Shown here piece by piece: positions 22,176 to 55,998 of a DNA stretch of 55,998 nt (position 1 is the first letter of the stretch; the number at the start of each line of letters is the position of its first letter). Under the pieces are notes generated by a model. That model did no database searches. It saw nothing but the letters and a program-made list of their open reading frames with translations, and was not told the DNA's origin. The stretch is from a bacterium (GTDB taxonomy: Bacteria > Vulcanimicrobiota > Vulcanimicrobiia > Vulcanimicrobiales > SCRA01). The stretch lies in contig SCQY01000092.1 of NCBI GenBank assembly GCA_004298665.1, positions 1 through 55,998 of the forward strand, written 5' to 3'. Made by a program: the position numbers and the translations under genes.

Positions 22176-22317
22176 GAAGGGGGCGAGCTCCAGCATATGT
22201 GCTAAGCAAGACGGAAGGGTCACTCGCCGCTCGCACGTTCGCTGGGTACAGGTAGCATCACGCGCGCTATGAGGTTGGCGTGTAGCGACCGGCAAAGTGG
22301 ATGGAGTGTGCGCGCGA

Positions 22318-22515: not shown

Positions 22516-22549
22516 CGTCTTTTACCTCTTACGCCAACACAGAGAGGGC

Positions 22550-30004: not shown

Positions 30005-30038
30005 CATGGCCGGTGTAGCATAAAATACACCGGCCATG
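30005..30038. repeat. Perfect 13-bp inverted repeat with an 8-bp asymmetric spacer (loxP-like geometry)
   Basis: CATGGCCGGTGTA GCATAAAA TACACCGGCCATG. Confidence 0.95.
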
Positions 30039-37685: not shown

Positions 37686-37688
37686 GAC

Positions 37689-38219: not shown

Positions 38220-38614
38220 CCTCCCCGTTCGCGCTTGCGGCGCTCGCGCCGCTCGCGGTCGCCGCCGCGGTGAGCGATCTACGCACCCATCGCGTGCCTC
38301 TATCGTGTACGCTTGGCGGGCTGATCTGCAGCGCGGTTATCGGTTGGCAGAGGCATGAACTCGAGCTCTTCGCTGGGCTCGTAGCCGGCCTACTGGCCGC
38401 GTTCTTGAGCATGTTTCTCTTGGGCGGCCGCATCGGCGGCGCTGATATCCTCTGGTCGGGGATTATTGGCGCGGTCGCTCCCGTCGCCGTACTCGTGACC
38501 TGGGTGATGCTCGTGGCTCTCGTTGTGGTGGTCACTCGCCGCGGTCGCCCCGTGGGGCTGCCACTTGTACCTCTACTGGTGCTCGCTGGAACCGTGGGCC
38601 GCCCATGGTGGTAA
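38210..38614 (+). CDS. Prepilin peptidase (A24, short TadV/CpaA-like form)
   Basis: SDLRTHRVP and IGGAD aspartate motifs in a polytopic membrane protein. Confidence 0.8.
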   Translation: MLVASPFALAALAPLAVAAAVSDLRTHRVPLSCTLGGLICSAVIGWQRHELELFAGLVAGLLAAFLSMFLLGGRIGGADILWSGIIGAVAPVAVLVTWVMLVALVVVVTRRGRPVGLPLVPLLVLAGTVGRPWW

Positions 38615-39414
38615 CCGGCATCGATCTGCGCGGAGATCAGGTGGCCTGTGCGGTGATTGACTGTTCCCATGGCCACGCTCGACTGCGTGCGGGGGAGGTG
38701 CTACCAAGTGCGGCGCTTCCTGAACTCGCGATTTCGGGCACCACCATGCTTCTGGCAGAGGCAGAGCCATGCTATCGCGTGCGTCTCCAGTTGCCGCCCG
38801 CAACCAGGCTACCGAGTTACCAGCGCTACGCGGCGATCGCCGCTGCAAGTGCGGACCGGCCCGGTGGCAAGCGTAAGGCTGCAGTCGTCGAGCAGCGTGA
38901 TCGAGAGGTCGTCGTCGGACTCGCCAACCTAGAGGCCATGGGGCCGACGCGTGAACGAGTGGAATCGGCCATCGGAGTCTCGGTTGGTATCGCCGATCCG
39001 GCTGCCGCCTGGATGGCTCTGTGCGCGCTGCGCGGTGGCGGACCCGAGGTAATCGTCGACGATTGGGGTGACCCAGCCCAGGTGATCATCTGCGACCCCA
39101 AGGGGAGCTGGATCTTCTCCGAAGTGGAGTCGATCCCCCGAGGCTCGCTTGGGCAGCGTGCCGCTGCAGTCGCGACCATCCTCCAACAGGGAGTATTGAC
39201 GCGCCGGCCGGTACGCACGATCGGGGTCGCCGGTCGCCTCGTCGACGCCATAGATCTACTGGTCGCAAACCTCGGCGGCGACGTCGAGCAGATCGTACCA
39301 ATACCGCAGGCGCAGCCATGGTGGCCGAGCCTCGGAGCAGCGCTCGTTGCCGTTTCACCCCGACTCGAACACAGCTATGAGGAGCTCCGCAGTGATTCGA
39401 CGACCACGCCGTGA
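38605..39414 (+). CDS. PilM-like protein
   Basis: TGIDL N-terminal actin-fold motif, VIVDDWG, SLGAAL C-terminus; position. Confidence 0.55.
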   Translation: MVVTGIDLRGDQVACAVIDCSHGHARLRAGEVLPSAALPELAISGTTMLLAEAEPCYRVRLQLPPATRLPSYQRYAAIAAASADRPGGKRKAAVVEQRDREVVVGLANLEAMGPTRERVESAIGVSVGIADPAAAWMALCALRGGGPEVIVDDWGDPAQVIICDPKGSWIFSEVESIPRGSLGQRAAAVATILQQGVLTRRPVRTIGVAGRLVDAIDLLVANLGGDVEQIVPIPQAQPWWPSLGAALVAVSPRLEHSYEELRSDSTTTP

Positions 39415-39994
39415 CGGCGCGCGCCGTCTGCGCGCCATGCTCGTCTCCGCAATGCCGGGCATCGTCGGCGGCCTCTTCCTCCTCATCGGCAGTGCTCTCG
39501 CGCGCGCGCATGCAGGCGATCAGCTTTCGATAGCGCGGATTCACGCCGCGCAGGCGCCGGCGCCGTCAACCATCGATATCAGGAAGGCGATCACCGCTGT
39601 AAACACGGCAACGTCGTTGCTTGAGGACGCGATCACTACTCGGGATGCAGCAGTTGCGAGCGTTGCTCGCCTCGACCATCTCGCGGCGAAGCTGCCGATC
39701 GGAGCTCGCCTAGTAAGCTACAATGCCAACGGGTCGGTAACCGTCGAGGCGCTCGATCAGGGACTACTCGGCGAGACCGCCACTCGGTGGGCCGCTCTTG
39801 GTTACACCCTTAGCGTTTCGACGACACAACTCGGCGAGCCAGGGTCCGGCGTAAGCGCACCGATCGAGCCGAATATGCAAGTCACCGTCGCGGATCGTGG
39901 CGTGCCCTCTTCGACACCACACCCATACGCTCCATCGGCGATGCCCACACCCTTGGTGCATCCCGCTCTTCCATTTTCTGGAGTGCAAAGGTGA
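39392..39994 (+). CDS. PilN-like protein
   Basis: Basic N-terminus, single TM, coiled coil, LP.GARLVSY; position. Confidence 0.55.
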   Translation: MIRRPRRDGARRLRAMLVSAMPGIVGGLFLLIGSALARAHAGDQLSIARIHAAQAPAPSTIDIRKAITAVNTATSLLEDAITTRDAAVASVARLDHLAAKLPIGARLVSYNANGSVTVEALDQGLLGETATRWAALGYTLSVSTTQLGEPGSGVSAPIEPNMQVTVADRGVPSSTPHPYAPSAMPTPLVHPALPFSGVQR

Positions 39995-40602
39995 CCGCGC
40001 AGCAGCAGGCGAGATCAATCGCCGGCAATCCGGTATTCGTCGGGTGGTGTATCGGCGTCGCTTTCGCGCTCCTCTGCACGGTCGGAGCTGCTTCAAATTC
40101 TCGTGGGGCCCGTAGTGATCGCGAGGCGGCTGCGGACCTCCTCAATCACCGTCTCGAGGCGGCACAGGAAGTGGGCGTCCTCAATGATGCACGTGAACGC
40201 GCACGCTTGCTGATGCCTCAGCTTGTGCCGCTCTGCGCGTCGGCGCCGCCGGCGATACAAGCGTTGCTGGTCGTGACGGATGGCGCCCCAGGCCTCCAGT
40301 TACGCGTCACCAGCTCCGACACACCGCCAAAGGCGGAAGGAGGAGAGGAGACGGGAGCATTGCTCGTGAGCGCCACCGGAACTGAAGCTGACCTCGCGCG
40401 GTGGCTCATGCGCGTCGACAACAACCCCGATCTGCGCGACAGCATCGCACTGAGGAGCGTCGATCGTCCCGCGCAGAGTCAGGATACGCACGCGCCCGCG
40501 AGCGCGAGCCGGATAAGCGCGAACGTTCAGGTCGCGTCTTATGCAGTGGATTCGGCAATCTGTCGGGAGGTTCGGTCAGTTGCGGAACACGCGGAACACT
40601 AG
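39991..40602 (+). CDS. PilO-like protein
   Basis: Single TM, coiled coil, VSATGTEADLARWLMRVD. Confidence 0.6.
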   Translation: MTAQQQARSIAGNPVFVGWCIGVAFALLCTVGAASNSRGARSDREAAADLLNHRLEAAQEVGVLNDARERARLLMPQLVPLCASAPPAIQALLVVTDGAPGLQLRVTSSDTPPKAEGGEETGALLVSATGTEADLARWLMRVDNNPDLRDSIALRSVDRPAQSQDTHAPASASRISANVQVASYAVDSAICREVRSVAEHAEH

Positions 40603-41221
40603 GACGGCGCGCCTCACGGTCGGCCTCGTTGCTGCGGGCGCTGCTTTTTTCGGCGGCCTCGCGATGGTCGTGGCGCAAGGGAACCCACAGTCAGAGGGCC
40701 TACCCGCCCTTTCCGCGACGCCTCCCCACGCTGCACGCCTGAAAGCCGATGCGCTAGGCGGCGCGGTCTTTGAGCCGCTGGTGACCTTCCACGCCCCGGC
40801 AATACCAGCACAGAAGGGACCATCGAGTTCGAGCCCCGCCGCGGTGAGCGCCGTGAGCCTGTGCATGACTCTCTCTGGACATCCGCCGATCGCCGTGTTC
40901 TCGCTCGGCACAGCATACGAAAGCAAGTTCGAGCAAGAGTCACTCGTCGGCCGGAAGATCCAAACGATTGGCGGCGGCTGGGTTCGCTTCGATGACGGCA
41001 CGATGCTCGTGGAGAGCAACTGTGTGGGCAGCGCCTCGGCCGCAGGGGCGCCAACTCCGCCTACGACGTCGCTCTCCGGCGGGCTGTCACCATCCAGTGA
41101 TGTGAATCCGCCCTTCGGGCCCGGTGGTATCCCGACCCCAGCGCCGGGCCTGCCAGCTGGGGGGTGGCGGATGCAGACTCCCCCACTCTCTCCACCCCCC
41201 GCCCCGGAGGCTACCCCATGA
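40541..41221 (+). CDS. PilP/GspC-like periplasmic protein (start uncertain)
   Basis: TM then a beta domain (LVGRKIQTIGGGWVRF); directly before the secretin. Confidence 0.45.
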   Translation: MQWIRQSVGRFGQLRNTRNTRTARLTVGLVAAGAAFFGGLAMVVAQGNPQSEGLPALSATPPHAARLKADALGGAVFEPLVTFHAPAIPAQKGPSSSSPAAVSAVSLCMTLSGHPPIAVFSLGTAYESKFEQESLVGRKIQTIGGGWVRFDDGTMLVESNCVGSASAAGAPTPPTTSLSGGLSPSSDVNPPFGPGGIPTPAPGLPAGGWRMQTPPLSPPPAPEATP

Positions 41222-41271
41222 GATCCACCGGTTCGACTCGAGGAGTCCCACCAACCCACAAAGGACGTATA

Positions 41272-42747
41272 GTGCGCCACCAACCCCTCCTGATTACTCT
41301 CGCTCTGGCATCGGGTCTCCTCGCCATGGACGTCCTCCCTGGCTCCGCGCAATCCGTGCTCTCTACGAATGGGATCCCACTCTCAGCCGCCCTTTCGGCG
41401 ACGGCGCGCGCGGCAAACGAGCGGTTGTGGATTCTGCCCGGCACACCCAACCCGCCCCAGGTCGGCTCGGTTGTCGGCACGACCCCGCGTGAGGCGCTCG
41501 CTCGTCTGCTCGATCTCAATGGCCTTGTGGCCCGGGAGCACAACGGCGTGCTCGTGGTCGGAACGCCCCTAGCGATGGATGCCCGATTCGGATCCGGAAC
41601 GGCCCACGCGCGGCTCGTTCCGGTCGTGGGGTTGGACCCGCAGGTGGTCGTGCAGACGCTGGCGCCGCAGCTTCCGGCGGGGACCGTCATCCTACCGGAC
41701 ACGGCGCGCCACGCGCTCTACGTGTCGGGAACCACGATGGCGCTGCGCCAGGTGGAGTCTTTTGTGGCGCCGCTCAACCAAAGGCAACCCGACGTCGTTC
41801 GCTATCCGCTCCACAGCAGTGCCGACCCGGCGCAGGTGACAGCGCTCCTCGAGAAGGTCGCGCCGCCGGCAGCCCCTGAATCGGTGGTAGTTGATCCCGC
41901 GGGCGGGGCGGTGCTGGTAGCTGGGCCGCCGGGATATCAGGGCGAAGTCAGCGCAGCCCTGGCGCAGATCGATCGCGATCCAGCGCAGGTGAAGTACCAT
42001 ATCTCGGTCATCGAGGTTGACCCCGTACAGCTCGCCCATAACGTTGGCATCTCCGTCGGGCAGAGCCAGACCCAATATCAGGCGGTCGGGCAGTCTGCGA
42101 TCGGGCAGTTGTCGTCCCCGGCACAGGGCCAAGCGATCTTTGCGTTCCCGTTGAATCACGGGCTCTCGCTCAACGGCGAACTCGACCTTCTTGAGTCGCA
42201 CGGACAAGCGCGGTTCATCCGCGATCAAGACATCACCGTGGTGAACGGTACGCAAGGGGTGGCCGACTTCACGGAACAGCTTCCGTATCAGGTGACCACG
42301 CAGAACGGCTTTTCGGTCACGACTGGTACACAGTACCAGTCCTTCGGATTCACGATTAAGTTGACGCCGCAGATCGGCGATAGCACGATCGGCACCACGG
42401 CCAACGTGGTGTACTCAACGCTTGCTGGCTTTGGCGTCGGCGGTGCACCGATCACCACGACGCGCGGTATGACCACGCGCGTAACGACGACCGACGGTCA
42501 GACCTTTCTCGTCGGCGGACTGAAAGCGGAAGACTTTACGACGACGGCATCAGGGATCCCAATACTCGACAGGCTGCCACTGCTCGGGGCGTTGTTCCGG
42601 CATGCGCACGACCAAGACAATCAGCAGGAGCTCGTGATGGTAATCAGCGCGCAGCGCATTGGGGCGGTTGACGCGATAGATACCTCGCGCTATCCGCACG
42701 TAGCACCCTACGTGTTGGCGTCTCCGCTTCCAGGAGGCAAGAAATGA
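41272..42747 (+). CDS. pilQ: Secretin (PilQ/GspD family)
   Basis: Signal peptide, N-domains, IDRDPAQV, DGQTFLVGGL, GIPILDRLPLLGALFR, ELVMVIS; start 41272 (RBS) or 41218. Confidence 0.9.
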   Translation: MRHQPLLITLALASGLLAMDVLPGSAQSVLSTNGIPLSAALSATARAANERLWILPGTPNPPQVGSVVGTTPREALARLLDLNGLVAREHNGVLVVGTPLAMDARFGSGTAHARLVPVVGLDPQVVVQTLAPQLPAGTVILPDTARHALYVSGTTMALRQVESFVAPLNQRQPDVVRYPLHSSADPAQVTALLEKVAPPAAPESVVVDPAGGAVLVAGPPGYQGEVSAALAQIDRDPAQVKYHISVIEVDPVQLAHNVGISVGQSQTQYQAVGQSAIGQLSSPAQGQAIFAFPLNHGLSLNGELDLLESHGQARFIRDQDITVVNGTQGVADFTEQLPYQVTTQNGFSVTTGTQYQSFGFTIKLTPQIGDSTIGTTANVVYSTLAGFGVGGAPITTTRGMTTRVTTTDGQTFLVGGLKAEDFTTTASGIPILDRLPLLGALFRHAHDQDNQQELVMVISAQRIGAVDAIDTSRYPHVAPYVLASPLPGGKK

Positions 42748-45700
42748 TCATCTACGAGCTCGGTCGCAAGGTGGCGCCGCTGCTCGGCCCGCAGCTCGAG
42801 CGCCGAGGGCCTTTCGCGCCCGGCGACCGCGTGGCCGTGACTGTACCACTTGTAAACGAGCGCCAAGTTCCGCTCGAGCGCGTGCAAGTGCGATTCTGCG
42901 CCGACCATCCTGAGGTGCGGTTTGATCCGGAATCGGTGGACATTCCACTCGTGGGAGGCGGGGAGCAGCTACGCGTAGAGACATCGCTGCTGGTGCCACA
43001 GCTTTCGAGCGCAATCGAGAGCGTACGTGTGTGGGCTGTTCTTCACAACCAGGTAGTCGGATCGCTCGAGACAGCGCATGCTGAGGTACGGATTGAGTCA
43101 CGCGCGGCGCTGCGTGCCGATTGCGACGAGACGGATCTGATCATCACAAACGTCGGTACGGCGGCTGCGCGCGTCCACATCGACGGTGATCGCACGCTGC
43201 CACCGGACTGGACCACTGAACGGATGAATATCCAGCCAGGGGGGGAGCTACGCTTATCGCTGCCCATCGAACCACTCGGGGTGCTGCGTTGCATCGAGGA
43301 GACTAGCGGGGAGCGGACGGTGGTGATCGACCGGCGTTCCGGTGCGCAGCCGCCTCGCCTATCAACACGCGGTGAGGCTCGCGGACCTCAGAGCGGCGTC
43401 CGTGTCGGGGATCTCCTCCCAATCGCGATCGAGGTACTCAATAGCGGAGGACCGGCGTACGACGCCGAGATTACGCTTAACCTTCCGGGCGGAGTGACCC
43501 TACTCTCCGGCTACACCACACGCGACGACGTGCCGCTGCTGGACGAAGACATCGTGCGCCGGGGTCGACAGGTCGATATCCGTCTTGGCTGCATCCAAGC
43601 GCAGGAGCACACTGTCGTGCGCGGCGCGGCGCGGGTCGAGCAGCTAACGACCGAAGCCGATTCGCTCGCGTTTGCTGGTGAGGTACGAGCAGCCGAAACC
43701 AGCGATCAACTCCGCTTCGGTACGCGCGTTTTGCGTGCCCCGGCGCTTTCTGGGCACGGCACCTACTTTGCCCCTCTTCGAGAGGATGAGCAGGGTCTGA
43801 TCCATACGACCCTGACGATCACGAACGCCCACGGCGAGCCTGTCGATGGCGCACTGGCGCTAACCGCTCACGGCGCGCAGATCGAAACCGTCACGCGCGA
43901 GGGACGTTCGCTCGAGCTCGGCGCTGATGCAGTCGATTACGGAACCCTCGTGGAGATCGGATCGATCGCAGCACGCTCGCGCGTAAGTATGACGATCATC
44001 GCCTCGCGGATCCCACTCGCGAGCGACGTTGGCTTCGAGGCGCGCATGGTCGTTGGTGGACGGACGCTCCCCTTAGCTGAAGTGCACCAAGAGCTCGTCG
44101 CAGAGCCGCGCGTGTCACTGACGCTGCGGCCGCAGCGCGAGGCGCGCGTACGCGTCGGGCAACCTTGCCTCCTCGAAGTATCACTGGCCAATCACGGGTC
44201 AGATCCACTTCGGGGCGCGCGCTTGCGTCCCGTCGTCCCAGAAGGCGTACGCATGCGCCTGCCGGTGAAAGAAGAGGGGGGCTGGTATCCCCTCGCGGGA
44301 GCACTCGCGCCGCTCGGCGGCCGCACGGGGTTTCCACTGCTCGTCGAGTTGAGTGAGCCGCCCTATGGCAACGCAATCGAGGTTGCGATCGAAGTCGACA
44401 GCGACAACGCGCCTTTGGTTCGCAGCGAGGCCGTCGTAATCGCAACGCCGTCGTCACCGACCCTGATTCTCTCCGAGCCCGAGCTACGGGAGGTTGGCAA
44501 GCGTGGCCTAGTGGAGGTCCGGGTACGCGTGGCGAACCGTTCCGACGGCGTAGCTCGCGATGTCTGGCTCGCCGTCAGAGCAGAGGATCGCCCGGTGCCA
44601 TTCACCGCGACGCTCGATGCGCACTCCGTTGACGAGCGCGGCCGAGGCGGCTCAATGCTGTCGGAAGGGATGCCGCTGGGGGATCTGCCCCCGGGAACGC
44701 AACGTGACGTCGCGTGGTATGCGGCGCCAAGCGGGCCTTCGTACTATACTAAAATCACCGTTCGTGGTGAGCCCGGGATTCAGCGCGTCGTAGACGGCGG
44801 CATCGAGCTGGCCGATCAGGCGTGGTTCACAAGCGAGCCGCTTCCCGCGCGGCCGATCGACGAGAACGTACCCATCGCTGGGGTAACGGCTGCCGCACCT
44901 GATCCATTCCAAAAGGCGCTGGATCAAAGCCCGGACCGGGCTCTGGAAACGGCAGACGAACGACGAGCGCTCGGTTCTGGCGAAGAAGCGGGCACTCGAG
45001 CAGAAGCCGATGCCCTTGCGCCTACGCGAGGTATCGAGCCGTCCGCCCCCGCGCTGACAATGGGCTCGCCGAGCTTGTCGACGGAGGAGCCTGCGCAACC
45101 TCTTGCGCGGCCGATCGACGAGGCTCTCACTGTGGCACAGCACTCGTCCAGTCCAGTTGATACCCTCGTGGCATTCTTCGATAAGGTCGGGATGCCGAGT
45201 GGGGAGCCCTCACAGACCGACGAAGCCGCGGGCGAAGTATCTTCAGTCGCGTCTGAGGAGACGACGCATGACACAGATGTAGCAGCAGCTCCGGCAACGC
45301 AAATCGCGGAGTCGGGAGCCGAGGCAACGGCGCATCGCGAGGTGGAAGAATCGGCGCCGCTAGAGGACTCCGACCTGGAGGACGGAGAGAGTCCAGCGAC
45401 TCCACCACCACCAGAGCTCGCGCCGATCGATCCTGTCGTGGAGCGGCCGGACGCCTTCGGCCTGTCCTTCGGATTTTCGATTGTTGAGATGGTGCGTGGC
45501 ACGGTTCCGTCCGATATCTGGAGGACCGCGCTTGCGCAGGCGGTGGTGCTGCGTCTACTCGGACCTCGTGAGCCCGCGGTACTCGCGCGTCGCGACACCG
45601 TAGTTCAGTATGCGCCGCAGCTTCTCAGTGAGGGCATCACCGATGGAGAAGTGCGAGCCTGGTTCGCGCGGATATTGGCTGGGTGGTGTGGGGGAGAGCT

Positions 45701-45911
45701 AGGGCCACGAGCAGACGAAGCCGCCCTAGCGGCCCTACAAGGTTACACCGTCCCGAGTCCCTATGTCGGGGCATTCGACGACTACCTAGCGGAGCTTGAG
45801 GACACCTACCCGCTGCGCACACCAGGAGCCTATCTTGATGCGCTCGAGAGCGCGAGCGTACCCGGAGTCGTCGATGCACTCGCACAGCTCGTAAAGGCGG
45901 TCAGGCCATGA
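42744..45911 (+). CDS. Large protein with repeated Ig-like (DUF11/CARDB-like) modules and an acidic linker
   Basis: Repeated V.vGD..i.i.v.N.G..A....l.lP.G motifs; no signal peptide. Confidence 0.65.
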   Translation: MIIYELGRKVAPLLGPQLERRGPFAPGDRVAVTVPLVNERQVPLERVQVRFCADHPEVRFDPESVDIPLVGGGEQLRVETSLLVPQLSSAIESVRVWAVLHNQVVGSLETAHAEVRIESRAALRADCDETDLIITNVGTAAARVHIDGDRTLPPDWTTERMNIQPGGELRLSLPIEPLGVLRCIEETSGERTVVIDRRSGAQPPRLSTRGEARGPQSGVRVGDLLPIAIEVLNSGGPAYDAEITLNLPGGVTLLSGYTTRDDVPLLDEDIVRRGRQVDIRLGCIQAQEHTVVRGAARVEQLTTEADSLAFAGEVRAAETSDQLRFGTRVLRAPALSGHGTYFAPLREDEQGLIHTTLTITNAHGEPVDGALALTAHGAQIETVTREGRSLELGADAVDYGTLVEIGSIAARSRVSMTIIASRIPLASDVGFEARMVVGGRTLPLAEVHQELVAEPRVSLTLRPQREARVRVGQPCLLEVSLANHGSDPLRGARLRPVVPEGVRMRLPVKEEGGWYPLAGALAPLGGRTGFPLLVELSEPPYGNAIEVAIEVDSDNAPLVRSEAVVIATPSSPTLILSEPELREVGKRGLVEVRVRVANRSDGVARDVWLAVRAEDRPVPFTATLDAHSVDERGRGGSMLSEGMPLGDLPPGTQRDVAWYAAPSGPSYYTKITVRGEPGIQRVVDGGIELADQAWFTSEPLPARPIDENVPIAGVTAAAPDPFQKALDQSPDRALETADERRALGSGEEAGTRAEADALAPTRGIEPSAPALTMGSPSLSTEEPAQPLARPIDEALTVAQHSSSPVDTLVAFFDKVGMPSGEPSQTDEAAGEVSSVASEETTHDTDVAAAPATQIAESGAEATAHREVEESAPLEDSDLEDGESPATPPPPELAPIDPVVERPDAFGLSFGFSIVEMVRGTVPSDIWRTALAQAVVLRLLGPREPAVLARRDTVVQYAPQLLSEGITDGEVRAWFARILAGWCGGELGPRADEAALAALQGYTVPSPYVGAFDDYLAELEDTYPLRTPGAYLDALESASVPGVVDALAQLVKAVRP

Positions 45912-46582
45912 TCGCGCTGGCCATCATGGCTGTGAGTGCAGCGGCTTTTACTGCGGTCCTTAGCCGCCTGCTGCTCGCCGAGCCGCGCGTGACGGAGCTT
46001 GAGATCCCGGACGTGATCTCGCCGCTCGCACGTCGTGTCGCGCTGTCCCCATCGTCGCAGCCGCGGCAGCACGGGGTGCGCCGCAGCGTCGCACTGCGCC
46101 TCCCGCACCTGCATGTTCCTACCCTCCGACTCCCCCGGTTGCCACGGTGGCATGTACCGAAGCAAGCGTTTCGTCTGCATATCACCTGGCGCTGGCCGCA
46201 GGTACGCGTCCCGAAGCTTGCATTCCGCCTACCGGCGCGCGGTCGGGTGATCTCGCCTCCGCAGCCGGCGGCAGTTGTGCCCGCTCCTGAACCCGCTCCG
46301 GCGGCCGCTGCGCCACAGATCCCGGCGTGGCTTGCGGATCTCGACGTACAGGAGGTTCCGCCCGTTGATCGGCGGGTGTGGCTCTGCTGGCTGCACGTAA
46401 GCGCGTATGTCGGCGAACGCCGCGAGGCCTTTCTGACGCTCGTCGAGGAGAGCGACCCCGAACTCATCAGTGTTGCGCGTCTTGCGCGCCAAACGGACAG
46501 ACCGCTCGTCATTTACACCTTGGAGGAGGCGCAACGGTGGAGTCAGCAGATCGGGACGCAGAGCAGCTCCTCTGCCGCATAG
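45908..46582 (+). CDS. Membrane-anchored hypothetical protein with Pro/Arg repeats
   Basis: N-terminal TM; LP.L.VP repeats; ATGA coupling. Confidence 0.55.
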   Translation: MIALAIMAVSAAAFTAVLSRLLLAEPRVTELEIPDVISPLARRVALSPSSQPRQHGVRRSVALRLPHLHVPTLRLPRLPRWHVPKQAFRLHITWRWPQVRVPKLAFRLPARGRVISPPQPAAVVPAPEPAPAAAAPQIPAWLADLDVQEVPPVDRRVWLCWLHVSAYVGERREAFLTLVEESDPELISVARLARQTDRPLVIYTLEEAQRWSQQIGTQSSSSAA

Positions 46583-47097
46583 TGCGGCACCGTGAAACGC
46601 TGCGTCACTCACTGGCGACTCGGGACCTCGCTTATGCGCTCGCGATCGCATGTGGCTGCGACTCAACGCGCGCCCGCGCAATCGCGTGTGCCGCGCTCCT
46701 CCATGATGTCGGCAAAGGGACGCTCCCCGAGTCCTTGCTGGACGCGCCGCGTCGACTGACGCATGACGAGACGCTGCTGCTGCGCACGCATGCCCAGGCG
46801 GGGGCGCGCATTGCGGCGCACGCCGGCATCGACTCGGAGATCTGCCAATGGATCGGGTTGCACCACGAACGCCCGGATGGCTCAGGCTATGAGGGCATCC
46901 GCGGTGACGCCATTCCCACGGAAGCACGAATCGTCATCGTGGCGGATGTCTGGGAAGCCACTGGGGCCCAGCGCCCCTACAGCCCCTATCACACACGGAG
47001 CGAGCGCTGGCGCATTCTCATAGAAACCGGCTGTGCGCGAGAGGTAGCGGCGTTACACACACTGCTTGAGGAGGATGTCCTTGCTCGGGTTGGATGA
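46582..47097 (+). CDS. Stand-alone HD-GYP-domain protein (c-di-GMP phosphodiesterase family)
   Basis: HS, LLHDVGK, HHERPDGSGYEG, ARIVIVAD, RPY; TAGTG coupling. Confidence 0.88.
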   Translation: MRHRETLRHSLATRDLAYALAIACGCDSTRARAIACAALLHDVGKGTLPESLLDAPRRLTHDETLLLRTHAQAGARIAAHAGIDSEICQWIGLHHERPDGSGYEGIRGDAIPTEARIVIVADVWEATGAQRPYSPYHTRSERWRILIETGCAREVAALHTLLEEDVLARVG

Positions 47098-47479
47098 GGC
47101 CCTGGTGGACGGCGAGCGTCTGTCGGTCTACCAGCTTGGCGAGGGCCTCGGGGTCTTGGCATCACCCCCGCTTACGGCGCGCGGCTACCGCTACGGCGAT
47201 TTAGTGCAGACGGCTTACGAGGATGGGCAGCTGGCTGTACGCCGGATCGTGCGGGCAGGCACTGCTCGCAGTTGGCGCTTCTCGCATCGTTTGGATATTC
47301 CAGCGCTCCAAGCTTTGGTGGAGCAATGCAGTTGGATGGGCGCGGTAATGCGCGCGACAGCGCACGAGCTCGTCGTGGCTGTACCGGCGAACGTCTCCGC
47401 TTTCCCCGTCCTCGAGAGGATACGCAATGCCGGGGTGGCTGCGGCTGGGTCGGCGCTCGATATGGAGGTGGTCGCATGA
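47075..47479 (+). CDS. DUF4265-like protein
   Basis: ERLSV...LASPPLTARGYRYGDLV...L....V pattern. Confidence 0.55.
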   Translation: MSLLGLDEALVDGERLSVYQLGEGLGVLASPPLTARGYRYGDLVQTAYEDGQLAVRRIVRAGTARSWRFSHRLDIPALQALVEQCSWMGAVMRATAHELVVAVPANVSAFPVLERIRNAGVAAAGSALDMEVVA

Positions 47480-47895
47480 GCTTTCCCTCAGCACTCCGGA
47501 CGCGCCCCGGGCTCATCGTCTACCGCGGCGGGCTGAGCGAACCGATCGCGCTCTTACCCGTCGCAACCGGGTGGCGCGTTGCCGAGGTGCCACTCGGCAG
47601 CGAAGCTGTCGCCTTCGGCGACTACGCGACAGTCCGCGAGCTATCCGATGGGCGCTTACAGATCATCGGCATCCGGCAAGGTGGGTGGCGCACGCTGCGG
47701 TCACGGACGGTGATCCCACCACGGGAAGAACTCGTCACCGAGCTTGCCGCCCGCGGGTGGCTTGGCCGCTGGAACGAGGACGGTTATCTGGCCGTTGGCG
47801 TACCCATGGAGGTCTGGCCCGAGGCGCGCCGTGTCCTCGACCATTGGGAAGCGAGTGCTCTCGTGGAGCGCTTCGAGCGGGGCATCGCGTCGTGA
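47476..47895 (+). CDS. DUF4265-like protein (paralogue)
   Basis: EPIAL...VAEVPL.SEAVAFGDY...GGWRTLR...YLAVGVP. Confidence 0.55.
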   Translation: MSFPSALRTRPGLIVYRGGLSEPIALLPVATGWRVAEVPLGSEAVAFGDYATVRELSDGRLQIIGIRQGGWRTLRSRTVIPPREELVTELAARGWLGRWNEDGYLAVGVPMEVWPEARRVLDHWEASALVERFERGIAS

Positions 47896-48884
47896 GTCGT
47901 ACCGCATGGCTGCGTCCCATCCTGGATACCCACCCGACGCTGGAGCGGGTGATTGTCAGTGCCGATCCGCTCGTACCGACGCTGTGGATCGCCGATCAGC
48001 ATGGCTGGCAAGTGGTCGCCGAACGCCAGGTCATCGACGCGGTCACGCAGGCGCTAAGCCAGAACCTCTCCGATGACGATCAAGTGGCCTTCACGAGCGC
48101 TGGCGTGGTTACGCACGTCGAGGCGATTGACGGCGTCGGACAGGTCACAATGCGCCATATCCGCGGCCCTGTATCGTCGACGATCGTGACGATCGCGCCG
48201 ATCGCGCTCGAAGGGGATCTCGGCAGGTGGGGTGTCGATCCTGCGCTCGTGCAAGGCCTCTACGCCCGCCAGCGCGGATTGGTTCTCGTCGGCGGCATGA
48301 GCGGGATGGCGTCGCAGCTTTCGCGCGCACTTTTTACCGAGGTCACAGCGCATGCGATCGATGCTCCTGCTGGAGTCATCGGTGCACGCCCCGTTGCGCG
48401 CGCGATCGCCAGAACGCCTTGGCTCTGGATCGCGTGTGACCCGCGCGCCGGCGTGACGCGCATCGAGGACGCGGCCGAGAGCCTAGCTGAACTAGCGCAG
48501 ATCGTCTTACTGGACGTCGGCGGAGGCCCTGGCACCGTGGAGGGAGCGATTCGCCTCGTCGACGGCGGGGCACTCGTGATAGCTCAGGTTCCCGGAGATG
48601 GGGTGCAGGCGATACTCGAGCGCTGGGAAGCCGCAGTCCCCAGCGCCGAGCGCGCAACGTGGACCGCGACAGTCGGCGCGCTCCGTGCGATCATCGCGAC
48701 CGAACAGATCACCGGCCGATTCGGCCCAGAGACAATCGCCGAGTGGCTCCCCATCGACGCGACCGCCCGAACGACCTTAGCCCGAGAGGGCCCGAGCGGC
48801 AGCGCAGCGCTGCTATCCCTTCCCGGTGCGCGTTCACGTGAAGCCGCGATCACGGCGCTTCGCGTCAAAGGGCGCGTGGCGTGA
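47892..48884 (+). CDS. Degenerate PilT-like protein (Walker A lost)
   Basis: RQRGLVLVGGMSGMAS in place of GxxGSGKS/T; LVDGGALVIA, ILER, ALRAIIA resemble the PilT C-domain. Confidence 0.6.
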   Translation: MSRTAWLRPILDTHPTLERVIVSADPLVPTLWIADQHGWQVVAERQVIDAVTQALSQNLSDDDQVAFTSAGVVTHVEAIDGVGQVTMRHIRGPVSSTIVTIAPIALEGDLGRWGVDPALVQGLYARQRGLVLVGGMSGMASQLSRALFTEVTAHAIDAPAGVIGARPVARAIARTPWLWIACDPRAGVTRIEDAAESLAELAQIVLLDVGGGPGTVEGAIRLVDGGALVIAQVPGDGVQAILERWEAAVPSAERATWTATVGALRAIIATEQITGRFGPETIAEWLPIDATARTTLAREGPSGSAALLSLPGARSREAAITALRVKGRVA

Positions 48885-49711
48885 TCGATTGGGAACGGGC
48901 CTACCAGAGGCTGGCCGAGGTCCCATTCCAGCCACGAGCCGTCGCGCACGCGTTCGCACTGGCGACCGGCGCCCGGCGCGTCGTCTACTTCCCACCCGCC
49001 GCGGCGGGCCTCGCTCCAGAGGGCATCGACGCAGTCGGAGCACGGATCCGCCGCTACATTCCATCAGCCTTCGAATTCAGTGAGCGCTGCATCGGGAATG
49101 GTCGTGACGGCCTCTGCCCTGTCGCCGATCGCGACCCGGGGCTCTGGTTCACTGTTCGGCTCGCCAAGCGCGCCGGCGGCGTCGCGGTCCTCCAGGCACC
49201 GCATCCACCCGATGAGGCATTCTCTACGTTCTGCCTCGTGGCGCTCGCTCGGATCATCGCGGACGCCGAGGTGACGGCGGCGCGAGAGCACGCGGCGCGC
49301 GATCCCCTTACCGGGCTACTACGGCGCGAGGCACTCGAAGCGCAGGTGGCACGAATGGAGCGCTACATTGTCATCGCCATCGACTGCAATGGCCTCAAGG
49401 CGATCAACGATACCCAGGGGCATGCCGCCGGCGACCGGTACCTTCAGGCGGCCGCGGCCGCGCTTCAACACGCCGTCCGCACCGGCGACCCCGTCGCAAG
49501 GTTCGGGGGAGATGAGTTTGTCGTCGTGGGTCCATCGCTCGACGTGGTAGGGCGCGTCCGTTCTTGCCTCGCCGCGGCGTCGGTTTCCGCCTCGCTCGGC
49601 GCGGCGGTGGCTCCCGACGACGGCATGGATTTTGCGAGCGTGCTCGCGCGCGCCGACGCGCGGATGTACGAGGAAAAACGCGCCTACCATGAGATGCGTG
49701 GCGCGCGATGA
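48881..49711 (+). CDS. Diguanylate cyclase (GGDEF)
   Basis: DPLTGL, IDCNGLKAINDTQGHAAGD, RTGD I-site, RFGGDEF, ADARMYEEK. Confidence 0.93.
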   Translation: MIDWERAYQRLAEVPFQPRAVAHAFALATGARRVVYFPPAAAGLAPEGIDAVGARIRRYIPSAFEFSERCIGNGRDGLCPVADRDPGLWFTVRLAKRAGGVAVLQAPHPPDEAFSTFCLVALARIIADAEVTAAREHAARDPLTGLLRREALEAQVARMERYIVIAIDCNGLKAINDTQGHAAGDRYLQAAAAALQHAVRTGDPVARFGGDEFVVVGPSLDVVGRVRSCLAAASVSASLGAAVAPDDGMDFASVLARADARMYEEKRAYHEMRGAR

Positions 49712-50981: not shown

Positions 50982-52010
50982 ATGAGCGCATCTCAATCGA
51001 AGACATTCTTTCTTCTTGCAAAACTCGTCATGGTGACGTTCGCGCTGTGCGCACTCCCAGCGATCGTGTGGCGCTGGACCACGATAATGCATGTAACTCA
51101 GCCTCTGCGAACGATCGCGGCAGCGGTCTTTATCGTCGCCACCGTATATGATGTGCATCTCCTGTTCGATATTCTCCGCTTGCGGCCCGAGGACTTACGT
51201 CTTGAGCGCATCGGACTGCGACAGGTGCCAAGCCTCGCCTTCGCGTTCGTAATTGCGCTCATGGTCGATGCGCCGGCGATCGCGCACGCCGCCCGCAACG
51301 TGGCGATCACACGAATTGCAACACAGGAGGCGTATAGACTCACGCCTGGCCAGCGGCAGTTCGAATACGAGCGGCACTCGGAACAACTTCACTTTCTAAG
51401 TGATCCTGTGGTAAGCCTAATCAGCAATCCATACGAGGACGTAGATCCTACGCGCGAGGCCTTTCTCAACCGCTATGCCAACGGGACGCCGGTAACGTTG
51501 CACCTGACGCGTGACAGATGCACTGCATTTGAGCGAAGCGCCGCCAGCGTGTCGCTCTCCTCGTATCCGCTGATCGACGAGTCGACCCGGCGTATCGCCG
51601 GATTTTGTGCAGCGCTCAATGGGCGGGTAGCTCAAGCCGCGAAAGACTACGAATCATTCGAAGCATCTGTCTACCTCCAAACGCCCGAGGATCCACCCCT
51701 TGCCTTCGGCGCTGTATTTGCGGCCGAGGAGGATACGAAGAGCACCGCGCTACTGAGCTACCTCCAACAGTCTTTGATAAATGATACGGCTGCGCGGGCG
51801 AATATACGTCGCCGCTGCTTGAAAGAGTACCACGCGCCAATTACCATGTTCGCGTGGGGCGGGCGATGGACGCCGCGATCAATCACCGAGGCACACGCTT
51901 GGCGCCGCCACTGGGCCGCAATGTTCGGTCCAGTATGCCTGGCGTTGCATGCGGTGGACCGTTATACGGTTACGATCCCAGCCTTACCAGCGACACACAC
52001 GGCGCTCTAG
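50982..52010 (+). CDS. Hypothetical membrane protein
   Basis: Three N-terminal TM segments; GAGG RBS. Confidence 0.6.
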   Translation: MSASQSKTFFLLAKLVMVTFALCALPAIVWRWTTIMHVTQPLRTIAAAVFIVATVYDVHLLFDILRLRPEDLRLERIGLRQVPSLAFAFVIALMVDAPAIAHAARNVAITRIATQEAYRLTPGQRQFEYERHSEQLHFLSDPVVSLISNPYEDVDPTREAFLNRYANGTPVTLHLTRDRCTAFERSAASVSLSSYPLIDESTRRIAGFCAALNGRVAQAAKDYESFEASVYLQTPEDPPLAFGAVFAAEEDTKSTALLSYLQQSLINDTAARANIRRRCLKEYHAPITMFAWGGRWTPRSITEAHAWRRHWAAMFGPVCLALHAVDRYTVTIPALPATHTAL

Positions 52011-53050
52011 AGCTGCAAGTAGCGCCCCGGGTGGTTCGCCCAAGCGCGTCCCTCCTCGAAGATCCGCACGACATGCTTCGGCTCCTTGTGGCCAGTTTGG
52101 GAAAGCGCCTGCGCAAGGGTTCCGCCGGCGCGTCCGATCTGGAAGATGAGACCAGAGCGGAAAGCATGCGGAGTGAACTTGCGAGGGTCGAATCCAGCTG
52201 CACGCACGCAATCGCTGACGATCCGCGCGAACTGCGCGACCGAGATTGGCTCGGTGCCGACGTACCCCGAATTGGTGACTGCGGGAAAGACGTAGGCATC
52301 CTCGATGCCGGCGGCGGCGAGGTACTTGGCAAGTGCCGCGATCGGGTCGGTAAGCTCGCGCTCGCCGCGCAGGATCACGACGTTGCGCGCGCGCTTGATG
52401 AACTCGCTGCGGTTGACGGTGGCGCGGAGGCCCTCAGGCACGAGTTCGATGCTGCGCACATGGAGGCGCCGCGCCTCCTCGCGGCTCATCGCCCCCGAGT
52501 AGAGGAGAAGCACCAGCGCCCGGTCGCGTAGCGCCCGGAGCTGCGCGCCTGGGGTGGTCGCGGATCTGCGGTCGATTGCCTCAACGATCATCCGCACGAT
52601 ATCGGTGTCGACCGGGATCTTCGGCTGCGGCGCTCGAGCTGCGGTTACACCCTCAGCCTCGTCCTGTGCGTGCTCCACCGCGCGAGCGATAGCCGCCATG
52701 GTCTTTGCGACCGCGGGATGGCGACGCGGGTCCGGCTGCTCGGCGCGGGCGAAGGCATCGGCAATCCCTGCCAGCCGCCGGCGGATCGTGGAGTAGGCGT
52801 GGGTTGCCGGCAGCACGGCGATCAAGCGGGGCTTGCCGTCGGGAGGCTGGGGCGGGGTAGTGGCGAGATGCGTAAGGTAGCGCGCAACGCTCTGGGGCGC
52901 GAGCGGCTCGCACGCCTGTAGGGCGCACCATGCCCGGTAGCGCCGCTCATCGGCCCGGTAGGCCTCTTCGGTATGGCCGCTGCGCGGGCTGGGGAGCGGC
53001 CGCGCGGGCCGGCGCGGCGGGGTGAAGTCGAAGGTAAGCTCAGTGGACAT
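52007..53050 (-). CDS. Cre-like tyrosine recombinase homologue, probably catalytically inactive
   Basis: STIRRRLAGI, RDRALVLL, DPIAAL..YL, HAFRSG, QTGH; catalytic R, K and Y positions substituted; start 53050 or 53116. Confidence 0.85.
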   Translation of the reverse strand: MSTELTFDFTPPRRPARPLPSPRSGHTEEAYRADERRYRAWCALQACEPLAPQSVARYLTHLATTPPQPPDGKPRLIAVLPATHAYSTIRRRLAGIADAFARAEQPDPRRHPAVAKTMAAIARAVEHAQDEAEGVTAARAPQPKIPVDTDIVRMIVEAIDRRSATTPGAQLRALRDRALVLLLYSGAMSREEARRLHVRSIELVPEGLRATVNRSEFIKRARNVVILRGERELTDPIAALAKYLAAAGIEDAYVFPAVTNSGYVGTEPISVAQFARIVSDCVRAAGFDPRKFTPHAFRSGLIFQIGRAGGTLAQALSQTGHKEPKHVVRIFEEGRAWANHPGRYLQL

Positions 53051-53106
53051 CCTGCCATTAGGGTAGCACGAACAGGCGTTCGCGTCACCACTAGGGAGAA
53101 GGGAGT

Positions 53107-53295
53107 CATAACGCACCCGCGTTCACCCCCCCACCCCCCCGATCCGGCGTTCCTACGCTCGTCGCACCTACCCTATCCGCGCTGACTTGCCCCGGCGAGC
53201 TCCTGCGCGCGCGCACCCGCATAGGCATAAGCGTAGTGCAGCTGCGGAAGCAAGAACGGTGGACAAGGGTTGGGGGGAAACGCTCCCGCGTTATG
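53107..53295. promoter_or_regulatory. Two AACGC-N4-GCGTT palindromes between the divergent recombinase and SRAP genes
   Basis: AACGCACCCGCGTT 53110-53123; AACGCTCCCGCGTT 53279-53292. Confidence 0.55.
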
Positions 53296-53353
53296 TCTCT
53301 GTTGACGCGCGAGGCGCACGGGACTGGCCCGTGGCCGTCGAATTCCTCTGCCC

Positions 53354-54034
53354 ATGTGCGGACGGTTCGGCCTCTACGATATCGACCCCGACACATGGTG
53401 GCGGCAGTTCCATGCCCGTTTCAAGGGTGAGTGGCAGCCGCGGTACAACATCGCGCCAACGCAGCAGATACTTGCGATCCGCAACGACGACCGCGACACC
53501 ATCTCTCCCATCCATTGGGGCTTCGTGCCGGCGTGGTCCAACGATCCAACCAAGGTTGGCTTCTCGAACATCAATGCCAAGGTGGAGCGCGTCGCGACGA
53601 GCCCGGTCTATCGCGGTGCGTTCAAGCGCCGGCGCTGCCTCATCTTGGCTAACTGCTTCTACGAGTGGCGCAAGGGCGGCGGCGGCGCGAAGACGCCCTA
53701 TCTCGTTCGTATGCGGTCCGGCGAGCCGTTCGCGTTCGCCGGCCTGTGGGAGCGCCGAGACCGGGACGGAGAAGCGCCGCTGCACACCTGCGTGATCCTC
53801 ACCTGCGGACCGAATGACCTGATGGCACCGATCCACAACCGGATGCCGGTCATCCTATCGTCGGCCGCCTACGACGCGTGGCTCGAGCCCGGCGAAGTGC
53901 AACCTGCGGATCTCATGCCGACGCTCCAACCGTATCCGAGCGAGGAAATGGATGCGTTTGCGATTTCGACGAGGGTAAACAGCGTCAGGAACGATGACCG
54001 GAGTATCGTCGAGCCGCTTGGCGCATCGGCGTGA
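53354..54034 (+). CDS. SOS response-associated peptidase (SRAP/HMCES/YedK)
   Basis: MCGRF, PRYNIAPTQ, WGFVP.W, INAK.E, RRCLI.A..FYEW, FAGLWE, IHNRMPVIL. Confidence 0.97.
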   Translation: MCGRFGLYDIDPDTWWRQFHARFKGEWQPRYNIAPTQQILAIRNDDRDTISPIHWGFVPAWSNDPTKVGFSNINAKVERVATSPVYRGAFKRRRCLILANCFYEWRKGGGGAKTPYLVRMRSGEPFAFAGLWERRDRDGEAPLHTCVILTCGPNDLMAPIHNRMPVILSSAAYDAWLEPGEVQPADLMPTLQPYPSEEMDAFAISTRVNSVRNDDRSIVEPLGASA

Positions 54035-54070: not shown

Positions 54071-55060
54071 CTACATCCCTCGATCTGGCAGGAGCTCCAC
54101 GATCTCTGAGAACTCCTTCCGCGCTCCTCTGAGCAGCCCGTTGACTCTCCGCGCATCCGGTTCTCGACCTGCACTCAGCAGCCGCCGCGCTTCGTCATCA
54201 GGCAGCAGGAAGGCCCAGATTGGTGCCCGCCAGATATGCCGTTGCCTTGGTAGGTAGATCGCCAGTTCGCGGATACCGAGGGTGTCGCTGTAGTCCAGCA
54301 GCGCGTAGCCAAGCAGCTGGTAGAGCGTGTTACGCAGGTCCATCGGCCGCGCGCTGGCGAGCGTCTTGAGTTCCCACAACGTGCTTCCGAGCATGAAGTC
54401 GGCGTCGGCGCCACCGATCGCATAGCTGCCATCGAAGGTTGGGTTGAGGGTGGCGGCGAGATCGAAATAGTGGCGAACGTCCTCCTCGAACGCCCAGGAT
54501 AGCTGGCGCACATCCGCGATGCACTCTTCTGGCACGAGTGCGGTGAGGTCATCCACCGATGCCTTCGTTCCAAGCGTATAGAGAGGGGAACCGATGAAAG
54601 GGCCAGCGCGGAAGATCTGCTCGTAGTACGTGAGTACGATGCAGTGACGCGCGAGCCGGTCTTCGTCCGCCTGGGCGAGACGTCTCCGCACGGGTGCGAT
54701 TCGCTTGAGCAGACGATCGTGCAGCGCGAAAAATGAGCCTGCTAAGCGAGCGGCGCTCGTGCCGAGAGGCTCTTGCGCAAGCAGCTGCGCGCCCTCGGCC
54801 GCGATCGTGGAGGCGGCGGCGTACATGCCGAGATAGTAGCGCACCCGGTAGTCGAGTGCCGTCCCGACGACACCCCGAATCGGCGAGGCCACCAGCGGCT
54901 TGATACAAGCCTCCTTGGGAACGACCCCTAGGCCCAGGGCCTCCTGACGCTCCGCCGCAAAGGGGATGCCTCGCTTCGTGCCCTCGATGATCGGGCACCG
55001 TGACAGCAGATACCTACGGACGGGGCTCTCCCGATCATCGAGCTCGTGCGTTAGCGCCAT
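54071..55060 (-). CDS. Hypothetical protein with a PD-(D/E)XK nuclease-like C-terminus
   Basis: GTALDYR, LNPTF, GGADAD...WELKT, YQLLGYALLD. Confidence 0.6.
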   Translation of the reverse strand: MALTHELDDRESPVRRYLLSRCPIIEGTKRGIPFAAERQEALGLGVVPKEACIKPLVASPIRGVVGTALDYRVRYYLGMYAAASTIAAEGAQLLAQEPLGTSAARLAGSFFALHDRLLKRIAPVRRRLAQADEDRLARHCIVLTYYEQIFRAGPFIGSPLYTLGTKASVDDLTALVPEECIADVRQLSWAFEEDVRHYFDLAATLNPTFDGSYAIGGADADFMLGSTLWELKTLASARPMDLRNTLYQLLGYALLDYSDTLGIRELAIYLPRQRHIWRAPIWAFLLPDDEARRLLSAGREPDARRVNGLLRGARKEFSEIVELLPDRGM

Positions 55061-55072
55061 GCGACTTCACTC

Positions 55073-55606
55073 TCAAACATCGCTGTTGGCTCGCTCGGCG
55101 ATCCGCGACCATGCCGCGTAAGCATCGATGCCGGCCACAAGCTGCTGGGTGTAGAGCGGAGCCGTAGCCTGGAGTCGAATCCCATGCGGCCCCTGCGCCG
55201 CCGCGGCGCGAATCGTCGCTTGGACCGCCGGCGGGAAGGTTGCCAAGCGCTCCAGGGCGGCCTCGCGGCGGACCTTCCACGGCACGTCATCGCCGGCCCG
55301 CGTGAGCCGCGCGAGGAGTGCCCGGCGCAACGCGGAGTCCGCCTCCGCGAGGGCCAGGACCTGCTGGACGCGGGTACGGGTGAGCGGATCGCGCTGACTC
55401 GAGAGGCGCTCCTGGCGGCGGCGCGCTTGGCGCAAGCAGCGATCGCAGGTCACGTGCCGCGGCGCGGGGCGCGATTGCGGATCGCAGCACTCGACACAGA
55501 GGCCCTGCTCCCGGGCGCGCGCACGTTGCGCGCGCTTGCGCTCCGCCGGCGTCGCAGCGCGCCGCGGGGCCTCGTTCAGATCATCACTTGGGGCAGCGTC
55601 GACCAT
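55073..55606 (-). CDS. Hypothetical protein with a zinc finger
   Basis: AERKRAQRAR, GLCVECC...CDRC. Confidence 0.5.
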   Translation of the reverse strand: MVDAAPSDDLNEAPRRAATPAERKRAQRARAREQGLCVECCDPQSRPAPRHVTCDRCLRQARRRQERLSSQRDPLTRTRVQQVLALAEADSALRRALLARLTRAGDDVPWKVRREAALERLATFPPAVQATIRAAAAQGPHGIRLQATAPLYTQQLVAGIDAYAAWSRIAERANSDV

Positions 55607-55749
55607 CCGTGACAGTATAGCATGAAATACGGTCACGACGGGGCCCCTTCTGCCGCCCCGGATTACCCCTGAGAAGGGAACATTCTCGGGAGGAAACGTA
55701 CGTTCGCTCTGGAAGAAGAGCCACCGCTCACCCGCCGGAGGAGGACGCC

Positions 55750-55998
55750 GTGCCCGAGCTCGATCCACTGACCACCCTGGCGTCGACCCTCCATGCCGCC
55801 CCCGGCGCCTACGCCCTGCTGCTGGGCTCCGGGCTCTCGCGCGGCGCCCAGATCCCCACCGGCTACGAGGTAACCCAAGAGCTGATCGGCCGCATCGCTG
55901 CCGGCGAGGGCGCGACCATCGCAGGCGACCCCGAGGCGTGGTACCGCGATCGCTATGGGGAGCCCAGCTACGACGGCCTCGTCGCTCGCCTGGCGCCA
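55750..55998 (+). CDS. SIR2-family protein, 5' part (runs off the window; not in ORF track)
   Basis: GGAGGAGG RBS + GTG; MPELDPLTTLASTLHAAPGAYALLLGSGLSRGAQIPTGYEV (sirtuin GxGxS..IPT motif). Confidence 0.85.
   Translation, partial: MPELDPLTTLASTLHAAPGAYALLLGSGLSRGAQIPTGYEVTQELIGRIAAGEGATIAGDPEAWYRDRYGEPSYDGLVARLAP

Follow-up and report, generated by a model that had tools for sequence, protein, structure and literature searches.

Proteins that have the fold of a tyrosine recombinase and act as regulators without recombining DNA have been recognised only recently. In the accessible portion of its report, MrpR (YopR) of SPbeta is described as a Cre-like fold that binds SPBRE repeats and represses the prophage, and Table 3 there lists it as lacking both Arg, the His and the Trp-position residues while keeping Lys and Tyr (PMC10516654). 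SroF of phi3T is presented, in the available excerpt of the preprint, as a monomer that clamps an asymmetric 26-bp box (bioRxiv 10.1101/2025.11.27.690993). TnsF of Tn6022-like Tn7 transposons is reported as an inactivated tyrosine-recombinase derivative with active relatives that serves as a DNA-binding target selector, and the portion of the report at hand gives it an N-terminal zinc-finger region, tandem core-binding domains and no catalytic chamber (PMC10293859). Further afield, excerpts on animal Crypton-derived genes and plant ALOG domains describe parts of tyrosine recombinases reused as DNA-binding regulators (PMC3212892, PMC3537659). Here we analyze contig SCQY01000092.1 of a bacterial assembly of 3.16 Mb in 362 contigs. 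The window is this whole 55,998-bp contig (C52), and the subject is a gene at 52007-53050 (-) encoding a 347-aa Cre-like protein, P0001. P0001 falls in a Tyr-less clade that, judged by its sequences, would be an independent and older case of such conversion inside the Cre lineage, with the nucleophile and general acid gone and the phosphate pocket partly kept.

Kinship with Cre was evident from both structure and profile. An AlphaFold2 model of P0001 (pLDDT 92, pTM 0.85) showed the two-domain core-binding and catalytic fold with the C-terminal tail in place. Foldseek ranked Cre chains on top (E ~1e-11, best 9e-12; 343 columns; TM 0.68-0.77). VIA-align superposed model residues 17-347 on Cre 29-340 with a Z of 24.4 (rmsd 3.2-3.3 A, 287 aligned), followed by XerH (19.7), IntI4 (17.4), lambda Int (14.9) and MrpR/YopR/SroF (13.9-14.6). 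A family profile of 148 members aligned with Cre residues 34-329 at an E of 6e-42, and in a search of the PDB it placed 17 Cre/Tre sequences first (E 6e-42 to 5e-40) and XerD next (1.6e-24). Searching the PDB by phmmer with P0001 alone yielded no recombinase match and four marginal alkylmercury lyase matches (E ~0.9). The description as Cre-like, a type that CDD presumably names INT_Cre_C, is correct by fold and by profile. Common to P0001 and Cre are the N-terminal motifs, the interdomain linker, the Glu, HxxR and His/Trp-III positions and the C-terminal tail, through which Cre-type proteins dock onto the neighboring subunit.

The gene itself is intact. Its open frame runs from an ATG at 53048-53050 to a stop codon at 52007-52009; an alternative GTG start would extend it to 52007-53116 (-), and the ATG fits the N-termini of aligned homologues. 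GC at the three codon positions is 0.72/0.54/0.81, and the order GC3 > GC1 > GC2 is the coding signature in this genome. The protein is basic (net charge ~ +14) and passes the Pfam cut-off for PF00589 Phage_integrase over residues 170-329 (35.7 bits against 27.1, E 9.2e-9). It also matched PHROG_1 integrase (E 1.8e-10), gained sub-threshold Xer-type matches in NCBIfam, and recovered generic integrase clusters in an ESM Atlas search. No PADLOC model matched P0001 or P0159, the second Tyr-less paralogue in the same genome.

Residues were mapped using local-pair and MAFFT alignments with canonical relatives and the family profile on Cre. In this mapping, S189 corresponds to Cre R173, E192 to E176, E216 to K201, H295 to H289, R298 to R292, H321 to W315 and I330 to Y324. 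The catalytic set of the enzyme is incomplete at three places. At Arg-I, the motif GAMSREE stands against the canonical GAFRRSE, with the Ser189 codon at 52484-52486 (-). The Lys of the beta-hairpin is Glu216 (codon 52403-52405 (-); NRSEFIK against RRSKTDQ). The nucleophile Tyr is Ile330 (codon 52061-52063 (-); VVRIFEE against xxxYxRx), which lies nine residues after H321 with no gap, the same spacing as from W315 to Y324 in Cre. The Glu, HxxR (His295 to Arg298, codons 52157-52168 (-)) and His-III residues are kept. Beyond the active site, P0001 differs from Cre in a clade-specific six-residue insert at 162-167 and in Arg residues conserved within its clade.

These replacements stand out against close relatives. 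Bacterial Cre-like "site-specific integrases", including two in this genome, are canonical with a full catalytic set. Among 155 proteins scored for catalytic residues, 135 are canonical at the five catalytic columns whose alignment is reliable (R, H, R, H/W and Y), and the substitutions in P0001 are therefore genuine departures from the family norm. The Lys column was gap-shifted in this alignment; context strings nonetheless show RSKTDQ in the 135 canonical relatives. In the accessible portion of a mutagenesis study of Cre, Tyr and Lys alone were strictly required for more than 5% activity, and each Arg tolerated a single substitution (PMC2943603). In P0001 the two indispensable residues, the nucleophile Tyr and the general-acid Lys, are both missing, and so is Arg-I. 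Without these three the protein should be unable to form the phosphotyrosine link, and recombinase chemistry is not expected of it. An earlier reading made from the letters of the DNA (the sequence-only reading) had described a full-length Cre-like protein with an intact frame, N-terminal domain and HxxR and with the catalytic Arg, Lys and Tyr replaced by Ser, Glu and Ile. This description held throughout: superposition put Cre first over both domains, the N-terminal domain was modeled as a helical bundle aligning with Cre from residue 29, and all three altered motifs were present and aligned as claimed.

We next considered whether the losses mark decay of one copy or are shared by descent. 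A profile search of 1.84 billion representatives returned 8,254 matches at E ≤ 1e-3, and the best 150 of these 8,254 were used. Of the scored proteins, 18 lack the Tyr and 16 of these 18 form one clade (P0001-3, P0009-16, P0018, P0032, P0090, P0124 and the paralogue at C227:50853-51875, P0159). In a FastTree of 157 rows, from which the truncated protein P0096 was left out, the 16 occupied one side of a branch with SH-like support of 100. An IQ-TREE analysis under LG+C20 with 61 rows (the 16 members, three singletons and 42 canonical proteins, 30 of them randomly drawn) gave the clade an SH-aLRT of 100, which was still 99 after removal of 33 columns around the five catalytic motifs. All members are full length (311-376 aa) at pairwise identities of 22-52% (median 31%). 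The nearest relatives of P0001, P0002 (52% identical) and P0003 (48%), carry the same losses.

Conservation within the clade was uneven across the former active site. Position 330 is I, V, L, M or A in all 16 members, and none has Lys at position 216. At the Arg-I position, 189, three members have Arg, five Lys and eight another residue. The Glu at 192 is kept in 16 of 16, Arg-II at 298 in 14 (P0002 is among the losers), His-III at 321 in 10 and His-II at 295 in seven. Residues R139, R194, R281, N213 and H340 are conserved specifically in the clade, as is the insert at 162-167, and the C-terminal Leu345 is kept in 14 members. Apart from the core Phe/Tyr position 184, no alternative Tyr column is conserved in the catalytic domain among the 16 members; the only Tyr-rich columns are 184 and, in the N-terminal domain, 31 and 58. 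Read in these alignments, the pattern is what one expects when constraint acts on a family for a role other than catalysis.

The sequence-only reading had proposed that chemistry was lost in a gene retained for another use, and it named two results that would have spoken otherwise, intact close relatives beside a decaying copy and a substitute nucleophile such as the Tyr of the tail motif GRYLQL. A clade sharing the substitutions, which it had suggested looking for, was found with support of 99-100, the closest relatives have lost the same residues, and the Tyr of that motif (Tyr344) is Tyr in only two of the 16 members, which makes it an unlikely nucleophile. Because of this clade evidence, exaptation is well supported for P0001, which does not appear to be a decaying copy. 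Tyr was also absent from two proteins outside the clade, P0023 (Lys to Gln, Tyr to Cys) and P0063 (Arg to Leu, Lys to Thr, Tyr to Leu), and inactivation therefore seems recurrent in this Cre-like subfamily. A further outsider, P0079, has lost the Lys and kept the Tyr.

Members of the clade were seldom encountered. Those from outside this genome are all metagenome proteins whose clusters hold only one or two sequences, and where a name is given it is "site-specific recombinase XerD", "integrase" or "hypothetical protein". None of the four other genomes of the taxonomic family had a match at E ≤ 1e-20. Across the phylum, 14 of 401 sampled genomes, the window's own included, matched at E ≤ 1e-15; the remaining 13 genomes contributed 14 examined matches, every one of them canonical. 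Matching plasmid records in PLSDB numbered eight, at 25-30% identity. A related-locus search for clade members in genome, metagenome and viral contigs returned no locus, and word-index searches recovered few relatives, the second adding no Tyr-less member. Among sequencing runs, a groundwater metagenome was the only listed holder of the window, and no RNA run was listed. The Tyr-less family is old and rare. Pipelines that use tyrosine recombinases as mobility markers would miscount Tyr-less relatives labeled XerD or integrase.

We favor, and consider probable, a reading in which P0001 binds specific DNA sites or has an architectural role, in either case without catalysis. This reading draws on the fold, the loss of catalytic residues, the sharing of that loss across the clade and the conserved element context; from these we infer DNA binding, oligomerization, an operator assignment and a regulatory outcome. 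P0001 would be an exapted descendant of a Cre-type tyrosine recombinase that keeps the two-domain, C-shaped clamp and the C-terminal docking tail. It would probably act on DNA as a dimer or higher oligomer and serve a large mobile element of conjugative type. Among possible targets, the best defined is the divergent promoter region that its own gene shares with an SRAP gene. If P0001 bound and joined the two palindromes found there, repression or coupling of the P0001 and SRAP genes could follow.

By analogy, MrpR/YopR and SroF are the best functional comparison for P0001. As described in the available excerpts, these arbitrium-phage master repressors (PDB 8A0A, 8BPZ, 9RD5) are likewise recombinase-fold proteins of mobile elements that have lost recombination. 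They were not among the 30 PDB sequences matched by the family profile at E ≤ 0.01. Structural alignment with P0001 covered 172-178 residues in four of the five entries, mostly in the catalytic domain, at a Z of 13.9-14.6, compared with 24.4 for Cre; chain 9rd5_H aligned over 249 residues but with an rmsd of 7.5. They share the superfamily fold with P0001, and neither comparison pointed to a nearer relationship. The pattern of loss is opposite, since MrpR, according to the portion of its report cited above, keeps Lys and Tyr whereas the P0001 clade lacks both. The hosts also differ, being Bacillus phages for MrpR/SroF and a conjugative-type element for P0001.

Other cases are more distant. Compared with TnsF, P0001 has a complete catalytic domain and no N-terminal extension. 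Pfam scans of 52 window ORFs found no Tn7-type transposase family, the sole related match being a sub-threshold TniB on an AAA_5 protein. Crypton-derived genes and ALOG domains differ, as far as the excerpts describe them, in being eukaryotic, in coming from other recombinase lineages and often in retaining one domain only. By origin, pattern of loss and host element, the P0001 clade is distinct from both MrpR/SroF and TnsF, and it would have arisen independently of the MrpR/SroF repressors. A full-text literature search with incomplete coverage and without supplements returned no description of a Tyr-less clade in the Cre lineage or of a dead and live Cre-like pair on a conjugative element. 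The clade counts at least 16 diverged lineages, with live paralogues in the same genome, probably on the same element. It would offer a clean natural system for studying a Cre-type clamp that is predicted to hold and bend DNA, and perhaps to bring sites into synapsis, without being able to cut.

We then asked which DNA sites P0001 might recognize. The 303-bp divergent region between the P0001 and SRAP genes holds two palindromes, each within an arm of a 28-nt inverted repeat. The left arm at 53103-53130 holds AACGCACCCGCGTT (53110-53123), 60 bp upstream of the P0001 ATG at 53050, and the right arm at 53272-53299 holds AACGCTCCCGCGTT (53279-53292), 62 bp upstream of the SRAP ATG at 53354. The arms are mutually inverted, 75% complementary and separated by 141 nt. 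The window contains AACGCNCCCGCGTT twice, where 0.16 copies would be expected and none of 100 shuffles reached two; the rest of the 3.16-Mb assembly contains none. Such an arrangement would suit a protein whose enzymatic ancestor brought two sites into synapsis, and the palindromes are candidate operators, with P0001 as a possible but less likely than not owner. A Deinococcus-type radiation/desiccation response motif was considered for them, but its half-site and spacing do not appear to fit.

A second candidate is a perfect lox-like inverted repeat of 13-8-13 architecture at 30005-30038. It has an AT-rich 8-bp spacer as in loxP and no second copy in the assembly; its position is between an ORF end at ~29975 and the start of a cluster of genes resembling a type IV secretion system (T4SS). 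Read as RNA, it forms a strong fold (-34 kcal/mol, z -5.2). It may be a site of the intact Cre-like recombinase described below, or simply a hairpin, perhaps a terminator. As for the 28-nt arms at 53103-53299, they might conceivably flank an invertible promoter segment. No inversion joints across the inverted repeats were present in contigs of the source run; such contigs cannot reveal rare variants. The sequence-only reading had named the sites at 30005 and at 53110/53279 as possible targets of P0001. They are real and unique in the assembly, and no result links either with P0001.

Several observations weigh against P0001 being a regulator at these palindromes. A Cre dimer covers a 13-8-13 footprint, which greatly exceeds their 5+4+5 layout; such a layout is commoner for a small helix-turn-helix dimer, and another regulator may own them. 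The pattern AACGC-N4-GCGTT is absent from the sibling element, with 0 of 17 matches on its contig, C227. The gene context of the clade is readable in this one genome only. Part of the phosphate pocket is kept (E192 in 16/16, R298 in 14/16 and His-III in 10/16), and P0001 could still sit at the scissile phosphate inside a recombination complex rather than act as a plain repressor.

This last point leads to the strongest alternative, in which P0001 is a non-catalytic partner, modulator or poison subunit of an intact Cre-like recombinase on the same element. The window ends in the 5' fragment of a gene for PDC-S65, a SIR2-like candidate defense protein, at 55750-55998 (+), and contig C350 begins with the 3' part of this gene. 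PDC-S65 is matched at exactly two places in the assembly, the last 240 bp of C52 (profile 15-95) and, in the same orientation, the first 870 bp of C350 (300-587). Because the gene is split over these two contig edges, C350 was placed after the window, which it most likely continues across a gap of ~0.6 kb. The next gene on C350 (893-1948) encodes an intact Cre-like recombinase that is 34% identical to P0001 and carries the motifs GGFRRSE, RRSKTDQ, HSLR, TGH and Y. An intact paralogue is therefore probably only ~4.4 kb from the P0001 gene, across the assembly gap, and this opened the possibility of partnership. In total the subfamily has two live and two dead paralogues in this genome; the live gene that is not on C350 belongs to a third T4SS element of related type (C280/C192).

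Such a partner would occupy the same or an adjacent half-site and enter the synaptic tetramer through the conserved docking tail. It might confine the reaction to a single strand pair, impose a direction on it or prevent recombination, the 30005 site being one place where this could happen. XerC and XerD provide a precedent for mixed assemblies, as two paralogous subunits share one site in a heterotetramer with one pair catalytically engaged. Both keep full active sites; P0001, of the live and dead pair, has none. The proximity of the intact gene, the paralogue count, the retention of E192, R298 and Leu345 across the clade and the one perfect lox-like site on the element all favor partnership. 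Against it, the join of C52 to C350 was drawn from the split gene and lies in unsequenced DNA. The pocket also appears to be eroding, with H295 kept in 7/16, His-III in 10/16 and no R298 in P0002, which would be unexpected if P0001 held the scissile phosphate. We regard this alternative as rather unlikely.

The second Tyr-less paralogue provided a point of comparison. P0159 (C227:50853-51875 (-)) lacks the Tyr and Lys, keeps Arg-I and HxxR, and is 28% identical to P0001. Its surroundings include Fic, SSB, C5-methylase, PLD, sigma-factor, zeta-like kinase and SRAP genes. Only two SRAP genes exist in the assembly, one 304 bp from the P0001 gene and the other ~3.9 kb from the P0159 gene, and the two SRAP proteins are 48% identical. 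The C52 and C227 regions share further genes at 38-88% identity (including SSB, HD, GGDEF, PLD and Zn-ribbon), and are therefore sibling elements. Read across both, gene content shows linkage of the dead Cre-like gene with SRAP to be a conserved backbone module and not two independent events. The 59.7-kb C227 contig carries no live recombinase, which counts against the partner alternative.

Combining these observations, it is conceivable, if unlikely, that a live and a dead Cre-like gene together form a backbone module of large conjugative elements, with the dead paralogue performing synapsis without chemistry. The dead protein could either loop the palindromes, controlling its own gene and that for SRAP, or gate the live tetramer at the lox-like site. 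If true, this would be a natural recombinase turned synapsis-only regulator, independent of MrpR/SroF.

Two further explanations are very improbable. The gene might be a decaying recombinase pseudogene that is still open by chance, as the loss of at least three catalytic residues, the long chance ORFs of high-GC DNA and the lack of an RNA run among the listed holders of the stretch would allow. This idea is largely refuted by the intact frame with its GC3 coding signature, the confidently predicted fold, losses common to a deep monophyletic clade of 16 full-length proteins down to 22% identity, and a diverged paralogue conserved in the sibling element. Equally hard to credit is that P0001 still cuts or joins DNA with an unconventional nucleophile or active site (its own Tyr, Ser or Thr, or one in trans). 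In its favor, HxxR, His-III and Glu remain, the tail contains a Tyr (Tyr344) and a Lys (Lys219) lies three residues past the lost one, but Tyr344 is poorly conserved, Lys219 is found in P0001 alone, the Tyr-rich columns of the clade lie only at 31, 58 and 184, and Cre, in the mutagenesis excerpt, strictly requires Tyr and Lys (PMC2943603).

The surrounding genes provide the setting of the P0001 gene. Their content suggests that the window belongs to a large element of conjugative type. A hybrid transfer/pilus cluster at 30931-45911 (+) encodes CagX/VirB9-like and TrbI/VirB10-like proteins, an SLT lytic transglycosylase, a GspF-like protein, a secretin and two GspE/PilT/VirB11-type ATPases, with these genes at 30.9-42.7 kb. 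A gene for a 1055-aa protein without clear family membership follows. Among the scanned window ORFs, none was recognized as a relaxase. The P0001 gene is convergent with a 342-aa membrane-like ORF without a known family, and its divergent neighbor, recognized by Pfam, is the SRAP (SOS-response-associated peptidase) gene at 53354-54034 (+). Beyond SRAP, a 329-aa ORF at 54071-55060 (-) matched PADLOC PDC-S61 and an RT-associated PD-(D/E)xK family (E ~1e-8). It adjoins a Zn-ribbon-like 231-aa ORF at 55073-55768 with a homologue at the end of C227. From these matches, the two ORFs look like a small defense islet beside the P0001 gene. At the other edge of the window, the first 120 nt of C52 coincide with the end of C266.

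Elsewhere, the element encodes several proteins of DNA metabolism: a DdrB-like single-strand-binding protein (15154-15744 (-)), a Strawberry-notch-type helicase of 1158 aa (19233-22709 (-)) and an ERF-family recombinase (25585-26295 (-)). The first 440 bp of the window hold an SSB-like ORF that is 49% identical to the C227 SSB. The 231-aa ORF at 665-1360 (-) weakly resembled the anthrax lethal factor N/C-terminal domain family, below the Pfam threshold (20.4 bits, cut-off 27.4; E 4.5e-4), and is probably either a distant metalloprotease-like fold or a chance match. HD/HD-GYP-type (HD_5) and GGDEF genes at 46378-49711 (+) have homologues on C227, and the element therefore carries cyclic-di-GMP signaling genes. 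Finally, the regions 8966-10416 (-) and 2632-3555 (-) include ThiF (E1-like) and Prok-E2_D genes that stand side by side as a bacterial ubiquitin-like conjugation pair, with a gene for a RES-domain protein a few kb away.

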